Source: an uncultured virus (IMG/VR IMGVR_UViG_3300035698_004319)
Taxonomy: Duplodnaviria; Heunggongvirae; Uroviricota; Caudoviricetes
IMG/VR virus record: IMGVR_UViG_3300035698_004319
Length of the DNA stretch: 64,000 bases
Direction: 5' to 3' (one strand)
Positions 16,149 through 18,430 of the stretch are shown piece after piece. A program made the translations under genes and the position numbers. Below the pieces are notes generated by a model. That model was not told the origin of the DNA. It did not search any database and saw only the letters and a program-made list of their open reading frames with translations. Positions within the stretch are counted from its first letter, which is position 1; the number at the start of each line of letters is the position of its first letter.

Positions 16149-16517
16149 ATGACAAAAAAATTAGGAATATCATTTATAATCGTTACTTGGCTATTTGTAA
16201 TAGCCTGTACAATAAAGGTAATAGCTGAAGAAAAAGAATATGATGTTTATTCCGCACAAGTGCCAATTATGTGTGGAACACCAGATGTAATAGAATCATA
16301 TATAACTGATAATAAATTTGTACCAATAAATGTAAGTGCTGGAAGACAAGGTGCTAAATCAGATGGCAAAATTATGTTTCTAATAACTTATTATATTAAT
16401 GAAGAATCACAAACACTAGCTACTATTGACATATCATCAAATGTAGAGAGATGTATTATTTTTCACACATTTGATTTAATAATGAGTGAAAAATTATTAA
16501 ATGGAAAAGGAATTTAA
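16149..16517 (+). CDS. Exported hypothetical protein
   Basis: N-terminal hydrophobic helix; paired Cys. Confidence 0.55.
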   Translation: MTKKLGISFIIVTWLFVIACTIKVIAEEKEYDVYSAQVPIMCGTPDVIESYITDNKFVPINVSAGRQGAKSDGKIMFLITYYINEESQTLATIDISSNVERCIIFHTFDLIMSEKLLNGKGI

Positions 16518-16751
16518 CGTTGACGACTAGTCAATAACTGGAGAAGACGAGGGGTCAAACCCTCCACCTCCACCACTCTAAACATATTAAGGTATGCTTT
16601 GAGGGGGTGAGCGGATAGATTCACAGGTAAACCTAGTTTGAGTTAAATCGCTGATATCGTACTGTCAAAAACATAAATGCTAACGAAAGTTACGCTTTAG
16701 CGGCCTAAGCCGTTGGGGTTTGATAGTTTTCCTTGCAACAGAAAAACTATC
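16518..16751 (+). ncRNA. ssrA: Permuted (two-piece) tmRNA, alphaproteobacterial type; tag ANESYALAA
   Basis: T-arm GAGGG/CCCTC, then CACCTCC-A-CCA (16565-16575), precede GGGGGTG (16603-16609); the acceptor stem has G3.U70; tag GCT AAC GAA AGT TAC GCT TTA GCG GCC TAA at 16679-16708; 3' hairpin with CTTGCAACAGAA; outer ends approximate. Confidence 0.92.
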
Positions 16752-16805
16752 GTAAATTGCTTAATTATAAGTAATAACAACATAACAAAAAGTAAGAAAA
16801 TAAAT

Positions 16806-17006
16806 ATGAGTCTACAAGGAAAAGTAAAATGGTTCAATTCAACTAAAGGTTTTGGTTTTATTGAAAGAGAAGATAAAGAAAAAGATGTATTCGTTCACGT
16901 GTCAGCAGTAAGAAATTCTGGTATGGATGTTTTGAATGAAGGTCAAGCTTTGACTTTTGAAGTTGAAGATGGTCCAAAAGGTCCTTCAGCGGTAAACTTG
17001 AAATAA
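16806..17006 (+). CDS. cspA: Cold-shock protein
   Basis: GKVKWFN..KGFGFI (RNP1), DVFVH.SA (RNP2); true start ATG 16806. Confidence 0.95.
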
Positions 17007-17022
17007 GTAATAAACGCATATG

Positions 17023-17045
17023 AGGTATGTTCCAAAGGCATACCT
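17023..17045 (+). terminator. Hairpin after cspA
   Basis: AGGTATGT/GCATACCT stem. Confidence 0.5.
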
Positions 17046-17047
17046 TG

Positions 17048-17055
17048 TATAAATA
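17048..17055 (+). promoter_or_regulatory. T4-type late promoter
   Basis: TATAAATA immediately 5' of the riboswitch. Confidence 0.7.
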
Positions 17056-17060
17056 GGTTT

Positions 17061-17106
17061 ACGTTCATCTTATTAAAGACGGAAGTAGCGAAAGCGAAGG
17101 AACGCA
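17061..17106 (+). ncRNA. Glutamine riboswitch aptamer (glnA/Downstream-peptide family)
   Basis: CGTTCA-TCTT/AAGA-CGGAAGTA-GC GAAA GC-GAAGGAACGC: P1 CGTTC/GAACG, P2, and P3 with E-loop. Confidence 0.8.
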
Positions 17107-17130
17107 CCCAACAATTAAAAGGAGGGTGTT

Positions 17131-17328
17131 ATGGAAAATAGACATACTAAAGTATTAACTACGTTTAGTGAAGAACAAAACAAAAAGAAATTAGATAATG
17201 TTTTGTTTAAATCCAGAAAAGAAGTTGAGATCAATGGTAATGGCACTTCGGGGTTTGTTGTAAAACACGGTCCCCATAAGGGCAAGGTACTTGCTCACTT
17301 CACACAAAAATATAATAATAACTCGTAA
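17131..17328 (+). CDS. Small basic protein downstream of the glutamine riboswitch
   Basis: AAGGAGG RBS; 65 aa. Confidence 0.7.
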   Translation: MENRHTKVLTTFSEEQNKKKLDNVLFKSRKEVEINGNGTSGFVVKHGPHKGKVLAHFTQKYNNNS

Positions 17329-17333
17329 AAGGC

Positions 17334-17362
17334 TTGCCTTTTTGGCTATACTATGTTATATT
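17334..17362 (+). promoter_or_regulatory. sigma70-type promoter
   Basis: TTGCCT-17-TATATT with extended -10 TG. Confidence 0.65.
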
Positions 17363-17367
17363 AGTAT

Positions 17368-17604
17368 ATGTCAGAATTTAAAAACGGTATAAAAAAAACA
17401 CTACTATCCCTTATAGAGTATAGTTGGGGTAGAGCTGTAATTTATACCCTTGGTCACATAGTTATTGCTATGACTTGTAATAGGTTAATCACAGGTGCAG
17501 GTTGGGCTCTTGCAGGAGCAGACGCAATTATAGAACCTTGTATTAATGGGGTGTGGTATTACTTTTTAGATAAATTTTACTCAAATAGGATATATAAATC
17601 ATAA
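17368..17604 (+). CDS. DUF2061-like small membrane protein
   Basis: IYT.GH..IA...ITGA...A...EP.IN.VW.Y. Confidence 0.6.
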   Translation: MSEFKNGIKKTLLSLIEYSWGRAVIYTLGHIVIAMTCNRLITGAGWALAGADAIIEPCINGVWYYFLDKFYSNRIYKS

Positions 17605-17813
17605 TGAACTCAAAAGAATTTTACCAAACAATAGAAGGCGTAGTTAGAGAAAAAAAAATAAGTTATATGGATGCCGTAGTGTGGTATTGTAATGAGAATG
17701 ATATTGACACAGCTACCGTAGGACCTTTAGTATCAAAAAATTTAAAAGATAAAATCTCAATAGAGGCACAGACTTTAAACTGGTTGCCAAAAACAGGTAA
17801 ACTGCCTATATAA
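17604..17813 (+). CDS. gp33: Late transcription co-activator
   Basis: F...IE..V.E....YMDAV..YC.EN.ID...LK.KI..EA..LN; synteny with gp59 and gp32. Confidence 0.85.
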   Translation: MNSKEFYQTIEGVVREKKISYMDAVVWYCNENDIDTATVGPLVSKNLKDKISIEAQTLNWLPKTGKLPI

Positions 17814-17815
17814 TT

Positions 17816-18430
17816 ATGTATGGAGGGTTTGAAGTATATAAAACATATTTAGCAATTAAACTTCATTTTGTATCAAAGAGTTATGACTATCACAAATATG
17901 AAGGAAAAATTAATTATAAATTAGATACTTTTACAAAACGAAATGATAGATACTTTTTTCACAAACTTAGCAAAATATATAACGAACAAGAAATCGTGGG
18001 TTTCTTTGTTTCAAACTTCCTTAACGACAGTAAAAAGTGGGTGGGCAGTTTATTACAAAATGATGGTAAAGATGTATATTTGGATTACAAGAAACGCCAA
18101 GAGGCATTTAATTACCATTTTCGAGCTGATTGCTTACATATTCTGGATGATTTTAATGCTAAGCGCTTTTCTTTTAATGATGGTTTCAATGTTTTTGGTG
18201 GCCAGCATCCTAGATTTCTTTACTTGTTATTATCCAAAAAAATATCATTTGAAACTGCCATTGTTTTTGAAGAAACTATTGGATATAGTAAAAAATGGTC
18301 TAAACAAATTAAAGAACAAATTGTCTGGCCTGATATACTAAACAAATTACAGAAATATAAAGGTTTTATTAAATATAACAACACAGCTATTAGATTAATA
18401 CTGAAAGAGATATTTGTAAATGGTGGATAG
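17816..18430 (+). CDS. gp59: Helicase loader
   Basis: VYK.YLAIK.HF...YDY.KY.G...F.KR.DRYFF.KL. Confidence 0.85.
   Translation: MYGGFEVYKTYLAIKLHFVSKSYDYHKYEGKINYKLDTFTKRNDRYFFHKLSKIYNEQEIVGFFVSNFLNDSKKWVGSLLQNDGKDVYLDYKKRQEAFNYHFRADCLHILDDFNAKRFSFNDGFNVFGGQHPRFLYLLLSKKISFETAIVFEETIGYSKKWSKQIKEQIVWPDILNKLQKYKGFIKYNNTAIRLILKEIFVNGG

Follow-up and report, generated by a model that had tools for sequence, protein, structure and literature searches.

The locus

The window, that is, the whole stretch of 64,000 nucleotides analysed here, is a segment of a T4-like myovirus. It codes for gp33-like and gp59-like proteins, RNase H, gp32, baseplate proteins resembling gp5, gp6, gp8, gp25, and gp53, and a neck protein. 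Among cultured phages, Pelagibacter phage Mosig is the closest (gp59 52% and gp33 57% identical); its gene order is nuclease, hypothetical gene, tmRNA, and gp33. As shown in Table 1, the window has an insert between the tmRNA and gp33 genes, which consists of a csp gene, a riboswitch, a gene for a small protein of 65 aa, and a DUF2061 gene. All elements of the original prediction, including the ORF, the ribosome-binding site (RBS), and the two pairing strands, were found at the positions given in Table 1.

Table 1. Features around the riboswitch, in window coordinates
Feature	Position	Strand	Evidence
Two-piece (permuted) alpha-type tmRNA gene	16471..16753	+	RF01849 65.8 bits, RF04321 73.5 bits
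Cold-shock-domain protein (csp) gene, 66 aa	16806..17006	+	PF00313 CSD, E 3.5e-26
7-bp hairpin, conserved, adjoining the promoter motif	17023..17045	+	read from sequence
Putative T4-type late-promoter motif TATAAATA	17048-17055	+	sequence; placement relative to aptamer and ORFs
Glutamine-I riboswitch aptamer	17060..17108	+	cmscan RF01739, full model 1-53 of 53
Anti-Shine-Dalgarno strand CACCC	17105..17109	+	covariation in viral leaders
Shine-Dalgarno AAGGAGG (17119-17125), overlapping the 3′ strand GGGTG (17124-17128)	17119..17128	+	sequence, fold, covariation
65-aa small basic protein gene	17131..17328	+	ORF; phrog_32989; free-standing SpeD-C-terminal-like domain
Weak terminator-like hairpin over the stop codon of the 65-aa gene	17327..17342	+	read from sequence
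DUF2061 small membrane protein gene	17368..17604	+	PF09834
gp33-like late-transcription co-activator gene	17604..17813	+	PF16805, E 4.2e-20

The tmRNA gene is the upstream neighbour and lies outside the switch; this synteny is common to Mosig and the OM43 phage Melnitz. The csp gene sits between the tmRNA gene and the riboswitch. A hairpin like that ahead of the promoter motif precedes TATAAATA with compensatory changes in four related loci (L084, L097, L114, and L120). A terminator scan of positions 16400-17900 called none, including the hairpin over the stop codon of the 65-aa gene. The DUF2061 slot is variable: in one RNA-library contig of a close relative, a different sequence of 645 letters takes its place. 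RNA-library contigs from three studies span the csp gene, the aptamer, and the ORF, covering positions 16800-17363 at about 96.5% identity; since neither strand nor transcript ends are visible in these contigs and DNA may have been present in the libraries, they do not prove expression.

A glutamine-I aptamer behind a late-promoter motif

The cmscan search revealed a full-length match to RF01739 (57.3 bits, with a gathering threshold of 35; E = 5.5e-10), which bears out the claim that a glnA-type glutamine aptamer lies here. This was the sole riboswitch match within the 64 kb at E≤1. The original prediction had named the Rfam glnA model together with the Downstream-peptide model; the first matched, but the second (RF01704, glutamine-II) was not reported in the window at E≤1. 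The glutamine-II riboswitch of Prochlorococcus and Synechococcus also senses glutamine and is associated with very small proteins (DUF4278) in marine streamlined genomes, but it has another fold, a pseudoknot.

The letters of the aptamer lie at 17062-17104. P1 is formed by 17062-17066 and 17100-17104, P2 has 4 bp, P3 is a short stem with a GAAA cap, and C17105 lies directly 3′ of P1. The three-way junction is present, and every capital letter of the Rfam consensus is kept in the cmscan alignment. The element is a riboswitch of a known class, and glutamine riboswitches have already been published for this phage group. As judged from its sequence, the phage RNA would bind glutamine.

The aptamer was said to stand behind a T4 late promoter. 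The copy number of TATAAATA is not enriched in the window (19 versus 15.3 expected), and the evidence comes from placement. Of 17 plus-strand copies, 13 are followed by a plus-strand ORF start within 80 nt, where random placement gave a mean of 1.7 and a maximum of 6 in 2000 draws, and 10 are followed by one within 35 nt. The well-placed copies include those before the gp25- and gp8-like genes. Among the matches listed are 129 viral aptamer loci, of which 34 have TATAAATA within 100 nt upstream of the aptamer, versus 1.7% of background 100-nt windows; in 19 of the 129, the motif stops 6-9 nt short of P1. Several other loci of the 65-aa family have CTAAATA in its place. A gp33 homologue is encoded in the 64-kb window, and gp55 was not seen there. 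By its placement before genes, the TATAAATA at 17048 is probably a T4-type late-promoter motif, which sustains the promoter claim.

A covarying helix sequesters the RBS

GCACCC at 17104-17109 can pair with GGGTGT at 17124-17129, immediately before the ATG at 17131. The minimum-free-energy fold contains the RBS-sequestering hairpin with a 5-bp stem (-6.6 kcal/mol), and the unpaired probability of G17124-G17128 is about 0. Is this helix common behind viral aptamers? An exact-pattern scan of viral contigs gave more than 120 aptamer loci at least. The 131 aptamer instances listed from viral contigs include those of the window and Melnitz; in 95 of them, a helix runs from the first base after P1 to the Shine-Dalgarno region. 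The remaining instances are 24 without the helix, many of which are upstream members of tandem pairs, and 12 with a helix in another register.

I aligned 71 distinct viral leaders, which had been chosen by a composition regex from the listed exact-pattern matches. The first core pair is CG in all 71 leaders, and the second is AU in 69 and GU in 2. The third pair is CG in 49, UA in 12, UG in 8, and AU in 2; the fourth is CG in 44, UA in 25, and UG in 2; the fifth is UG in 40, UA in 21, CG in 9, and other in 1. Double-sided changes occur at two pairs, in 14 and 25 sequences. Because the regex restricts the letters, chance pairing is raised, with a shuffled mean of 74.5% over the seven tested pairs (five core and two outer). 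The covariation score is 0.357 versus 0.220 for shuffles; none of 500 shuffles scored as high, and slid controls gave 0.08-0.22. Thus, the RBS-sequestering helix proposed by the original prediction is real, and an expression platform couples the aptamer to the downstream gene. The accompanying claim of an overlap with P1 holds for the linchpin C described below, but not as a strand exchange with P1: the sixth pair, G17104-U17129, is not conserved, its 3′ column varying to A, C, and G.

In the numbering of the solved aptamer, C1:G59 closes P1 and contacts glutamine, and G23-C60 is a ligand-dependent linchpin pair (PMC6698751, PMC11477058). C17105, with which the helix starts and which is the same in 71 of 71 leaders, is the counterpart of this linchpin C60. 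A nearest-neighbour model allows the aptamer and the sequestering hairpin side by side (-10.2 kcal/mol together). Since the two are thermodynamically compatible, switching would depend on the tertiary linchpin alone.

This arrangement resembles the type-1 riboswitch of gifB, encoding IF17, in Synechocystis, which also belongs to RF01739 and is followed by a small regulatory protein. Klahn et al. 2018 proposed that glutamine binding frees the gifB RBS, which is otherwise blocked by the linchpin C and the bases after it, and showed that the riboswitch is an ON switch (PMC6212724). The cyanobacterial leaders examined have a like layout (CGCCTC...GGAGGCG). The differences are that gifB is under an NtcA-controlled promoter (PMC6212724), whereas the window element is phage-borne and stands behind a putative T4-type late promoter, and that the helix letters are CACCC/GGGTG in the window versus CGCCTC/GAGGCG in the gifB type. 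Because the RBS helix covaries and starts at the counterpart of linchpin C60, and because the gifB model comes with an ON result, the phage element is likely, by analogy, to be a glutamine-ON translational switch.

The 65-aa protein is related to a domain of SpeD-like enzymes

The 65-aa ORF of the original prediction was confirmed, and family conservation indicates that it encodes a real protein. At E≤1, no Pfam or NCBIfam family was found for the protein, nor a match to PF14105 (DUF4278) or YRG repeats. It was said to belong to no recognised family, which no longer holds: it matches phrog_32989 (E = 2.8e-13), has homologues in SAR11-type bacteria, and resembles the C-terminal domain of SpeD fusions. 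In an AlphaFold model of modest confidence (pLDDT 71, pTM 0.40), residues 2-28 form a long helix, which is accompanied by a beta hairpin. A Foldseek search of the PDB with the model gave no match at E≤0.001, and the best match in the ESM Atlas was to an unnamed cluster (0.77).

Among the matches listed, the riboswitch-linked 65-aa family has 17 members, namely 16 viral-contig loci and the window. An alignment of these members with host and database homologues (A2) contains sequences 31-94% identical to the window protein, with N35, G38, T39, G41, K45, G47, and H56 invariant. Weak tblastn matches were found in 26 Pelagibacter phage records. An Rfam scan of six loci of cultured pelagiphage homologues gave no match, and no riboswitch precedes the homologue there.

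A profile search with A2 among longer proteins gave 534 matches at E≤1e-3, and nearly all of the best 120 of these 534 have PF02675 (AdoMet_dc), with profile E-values of about 1e-20. SpeD-like pyruvoyl decarboxylases are relatives of AdoMetDC. The fused proteins are 187-218 aa in length and consist of a SpeD core followed by a C-terminal part of about 65 aa, which aligns with the whole of the small protein. The invariant columns of the N-G-x-G-T-S-G-Y...K-x-G...H core are common to A2 and the alignment of fused proteins. SpeD-like enzymes are encoded on 598 of 600 matched viral stretches. A separate 65-aa gene follows a 131-aa SpeD core after 26 nt in one locus (L408) and lies one gene further from the core in another (L412). 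A motif regex sorted 29 of 80 viral loci into 21 fused and 8 adjacent cases; the other 51 are undecided by the regex rather than domain-free. Only three cultured pelagiphage records have both an unfused SpeD and a match to the small protein.

As judged by these alignments, the 65-aa protein is a free-standing form of a domain that is fused to, or encoded after, SpeD-like decarboxylases. From the fusion and the adjacency, a SpeD-like enzyme, of the phage or of the host, is the most likely partner of the small protein, and this partnership is the best functional lead for the protein. PF02675 was not found among the 92 window ORFs scanned or in Mosig, HTVC008M, or Melnitz. It was found in three host genomes (G001, G222, and G003). 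A regex search detected no glutamine aptamer within 1.5 kb in any of the 80 viral loci with a fused SpeD. Together with the small number of cultured records that have both genes, these results speak against a partner that the phage itself must encode. AlphaFold modelled the core of a fused SpeD protein with confidence but gave its C-terminal domain a pLDDT of 42-53, so the model gives no view of the domain packing.

The SpeD-like enzyme of pelagiphage HTVC201P has been characterised as a pyruvoyl arginine decarboxylase (PMC9992855). The phage SpeD-like decarboxylases of Li et al. 2023 (PMC9992855, PMC10407285) are related to the window protein through the homologous C-terminal 65 aa or so, and differ from it in having a catalytic core, which the small protein lacks. 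The HTVC201P enzyme itself (122 aa) is without this C-terminal domain. SpeD-SpeD fusions are described in these reports, but the C-terminal domain of about 65 aa is not among the fusions in the parts of them that were considered.

The original prediction had drawn an analogy with cyanobacterial factors that inactivate glutamine synthetase (GS). Accordingly phrased, the 65-aa protein would be a functional analogue of IF7 and IF17, made at high glutamine and inhibiting the GS of the host. Its size and regulatory logic fit gifB and gifA, and in cyanobacterial loci, IF7-like peptides of 44-56 aa are likewise encoded downstream of a riboswitch of this type. A small-protein regulator would also fill a gap in SAR11, which has been described as being without PII, GlnD, and NtrBC (PMC3870248), and one class-I GS is encoded by the Pelagibacteraceae genome G001 described below. 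On the other hand, a comparison of A2 with an alignment of cyanobacterial IF7-like peptides (A3) by hhalign gave a probability of 0.27%, and the three invariant arginines of the latter (R24, R37, and R44) have no counterpart in A2; unlike several products behind such riboswitches, the window protein is also without a DUF4278 match. The analogy thus finds no sequence support, and the fusion and adjacency point to SpeD-like enzymes rather than to GS. I consider a GS inhibitor unlikely.

Viral aptamers precede small ORFs of several families

Glutamine riboswitches were published by Buchholz et al. 2022 for Melnitz, where the element is 3′ of the tmRNA gene, for Mosig, and for 10 pelagimyophage MAVGs; their role was taken to be control of tmRNA (PMC9004378). 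Does the element of the window act on its neighbours, either on the upstream tmRNA gene or, via read-through or polarity, on the downstream DUF2061 and gp33 genes? The cassette lies between tmRNA and gp33 both in the window and in Melnitz, and the RNA-library contigs run from csp through the aptamer into the ORF. The aptamer is, however, 3′ of the tmRNA gene, the csp gene and a separate promoter motif intervene in the window, and the gene downstream of the 65-aa ORF is variable.

The layouts of Melnitz and Mosig also speak against control of the neighbours. The Melnitz aptamer (RF01739, 52.8 bits; RF01704 reaches 20.4 bits, under the cut-off of 33) is followed by a like covarying RBS helix and an unannotated ORF of 32 codons. 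Its product falls in the largest peptide cluster, found behind 42 aptamer entries (40 loci) among the matches listed. The riboswitch of Mosig (50 bits) is about 19 kb away from the tmRNA gene, and RF01739 was not found in the 12.6 kb around the latter. It lies directly before the 51-aa gene Mosig_00116, has a late-promoter-like ATAAATA upstream, and carries a compensatory change in P1. Thus, it is argued from both layouts that the riboswitches control small ORFs and not tmRNA, and an action on the neighbours is quite improbable.

The window and the Melnitz-like myophages are alike in being T4-like and in having an alpha-type two-piece tmRNA, an aptamer of the same family, and the position between tmRNA and gp33 (PMC9004378). 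They differ in that the window has the csp gene inserted and another peptide family (65 aa versus 32 aa). In the part of the Melnitz report considered here, control is assigned to tmRNA and no downstream ORF is annotated (PMC9004378), whereas the present analysis points to a small ORF whose RBS helix covaries.

Among the matches listed, the ORFs downstream of viral aptamers fall into at least five families. Apart from the 65-aa family, these are the basic peptides of about 30 aa to which the Melnitz ORF belongs (cluster 0), DUF4278-like YRG peptides recognised by a Pfam match (cluster 2; 17 entries), peptides of 46-54 aa (16 entries), and peptides of about 50 aa (8 entries). Profile comparison of the 65-aa family with cluster 0 gave a probability of 1.3%, and that of cluster 0 with IF7-like peptides 0.18%. 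The family of about 50 aa gave 0.07% with IF7-like peptides and 0.14% with the 65-aa family. At the level of these profiles, the compared families appear to have no detectable kinship to each other or to the cyanobacterial IF7-like peptides.

Host homologues and a tandem-pseudoknot leader

The aptamer pattern was also found in cellular genomes; among the matches listed, it occurs in cyanobacteria, SAR86, and other Gammaproteobacteria. In SAR86 and other Gammaproteobacteria, the listed aptamers precede a GS-II-like gene, porin-like genes, and Amt. The matches listed also include many alphaproteobacterial SAGs with tandem aptamers and two Pelagibacteraceae-labelled MAGs. In one of these MAGs, G001, the aptamer and the same RBS helix occur with a 70-aa homologue (65% identical), and the surroundings are purely cellular, with a tRNA gene alongside.

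Of 301 genomes from the same order as G001, 82 match the window protein at E≤1e-3; one of them, G113, is flagged as unpublished. RF01739 itself was found in only one of 151 genomes of this order under strict filters. When 20 host loci were scanned, RF01739 was present only at the two closest homologues, and the leaders of the other host homologues gave no Rfam match at E≤0.1. These share a different, conserved leader, in which two compact H-type pseudoknots in tandem precede the RBS. In 27 distinct sequences, 96.3% of cells pair versus 81.2% after shuffling, with none of 500 shuffles as high; slid controls gave 19-38%, and double-sided changes occur at six pairs.

A covariance model of the pseudoknot leader matched 21 of 151 genomes at E≤0.01. 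Twelve of the 21 matches are before the 65-aa family and four before a 48-aa ORF, which makes 16 good matches. Five further matches at 30 bits, upstream of RibB-like ORFs, look false. The host 48-aa ORF is homologous to the phage family of about 50 aa to which Mosig_00116 belongs (BLASTP E = 2e-14, 50% identity). Thus, in hosts the pseudoknot leader stands before two unrelated families that follow the glutamine riboswitch in phages. The exact pattern of the pseudoknot leader gave no match in viral contigs, and the covariance model gave none in the window. In a non-exhaustive literature check, the leader was absent from Rfam 15 and from the motifs in the part of Meyer et al. 2009 considered here.

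It is conceivable, albeit doubtful, that the two leaders are interchangeable. In that case, the pseudoknot would represent a new riboswitch class that senses glutamine or nitrogen status in a PII-less clade, and its micro-protein regulon, copied by the phages, would include a regulator of SpeD-like polyamine enzymes.

Discussion

The overall explanation that I slightly favour is a late-promoter glutamine-ON switch controlling a 65-aa protein tied to SpeD-like polyamine enzymes. Late in infection, the promoter TATAAATA at 17048 would start a transcript a few bases before the type-I aptamer. Without glutamine, 17105-17109 would pair with 17124-17128 and bury the 3′ half of the RBS, and the 65-codon gene would be poorly translated. 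When glutamine is bound, the ligand pocket would be closed by the long-range linchpin pair, which takes up C17105 as the equivalent of C60. With its first base thus engaged, the helix over the RBS would lose its foundation, the RBS would open, and the protein would be made, as in cyanobacterial gifB. Together with a SpeD-like enzyme of the phage or the host, the 65-aa protein may tie polyamine production for late infection to nitrogen status.

The element might instead bind glutamine but switch OFF, or, in phages that infect heterotrophs, might have come to bind a different ligand, given that the direction is taken from analogy, that the aptamer and the hairpin are compatible, and that the rarity of RF01739 in the presumed host order makes host physiology no guide; this is hardly probable, since all conserved positions of the Rfam consensus are kept and the invariant linchpin C is the first helix base, a geometry that fits ligand-induced opening.

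On the favoured explanation of a late glutamine-ON switch, the added value of the analysis lies in the true target of the sensor, the link to polyamine enzymes, and the leader swap on the host side. SAR11 and their phages dominate the surface ocean, where SAR11 has to sense nitrogen without PII. Here, a phage appears to bring its own glutamine sensor, of a class found in only one of the 151 genomes of the presumed host order. The target of the sensor would be a small ORF, which corrects the published assignment to tmRNA, and the micro-protein under its control is linked to polyamine enzymes by fusion and gene adjacency. The 65-aa family is also found on the chromosomes of SAR11-type bacteria, the most abundant in the ocean. 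Mosig on HTCC1062 is a cultured system for a phage glutamine riboswitch with its peptide, and the pseudoknot leader is a candidate for a new SAR11 riboswitch class over the same peptide families.

A tandem pseudoknot leader in the host chromosomes

It was found that SAR11-type chromosomes carry an undescribed leader made of tandem H-type pseudoknots with strong covariation, and a search of Rfam gave no match for this leader of the host loci. It precedes host homologues of the 65-aa protein that the window encodes, as well as a 48-aa ORF whose phage homologues are peptides under riboswitch control. A third conserved leader, distinct and with a TTGAC-type promoter-like box, lies upstream of more distant 64-aa host homologues (L302, L305-L308). 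Directly 3′ of the host small-protein gene, loci L267-L271 (about 1647-1730) have short, sub-threshold alpha_tmRNA matches (25-37 bits), which may be what is left of a tRNA-like or att-like element, or may have arisen by chance.

Two viral contigs (L408:1501-2120 and L412:1501-2293) encode a SpeD-like core and a 65-aa protein of the window's family in two distinct genes, the core gene first. These arrangements are natural split forms of the SpeD fusion.

RF01739-pattern aptamers were also seen in marine heterotroph genomes, where they stand ahead of a GS-II-like or porin-like gene or of ammonium transporters. Tandem copies are frequent, and their platforms are terminator-like or of other kinds.

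Features at the viral, phage, and host loci
Feature	Location	Remark
Two-piece alpha-type tmRNA	window 16471-16753	phage-borne
Cold-shock-domain gene (csp)	window 16806-17006	downstream of tmRNA
Tandem pseudoknot leader	L261:1412-1494; 26 other host loci (L260-L296, L311); also L331-L334	
Melnitz 32-codon ORF	L128:2555-2653 (MZ577097)	unannotated; directly 3′ of glutamine riboswitch
Mosig glutamine riboswitch and Mosig_00116	L342:1526-1790 = MT647606 92025-92250	minus strand
Heterotroph RF01739-pattern loci	L137, L184, L186, L190, L199	SAR86 and other Gammaproteobacteria
Further heterotroph RF01739-pattern loci	L130, L133, L221, L231, L247; L194, L211	

The riboswitch locus in the window and in cultured phages

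In the window, a 7-bp hairpin (17023-17045) abuts the TATAAATA late-promoter motif, and related viral loci keep it before the motif with compensatory changes. In the window, csp follows the tmRNA; Mosig and Melnitz have no csp at that place. In one RNA-library contig of a close relative, 645 other letters replace the DUF2061 gene (window 17364-17600), and the sequence rejoins at the start of gp33.

In place of the Melnitz 32-codon ORF, the database record shows a 33-aa ORF read from the other strand. Mosig also has a manA RNA (RF01745, 64 bits; L007:7788-7995) with a rubrerythrin-like gene downstream. The P1 stem of the Mosig glutamine riboswitch is a compensatory variant, and Mosig_00116 (51 aa) lies downstream. 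This riboswitch and Mosig_00116 constitute a cultured SAR11 phage system open to testing.
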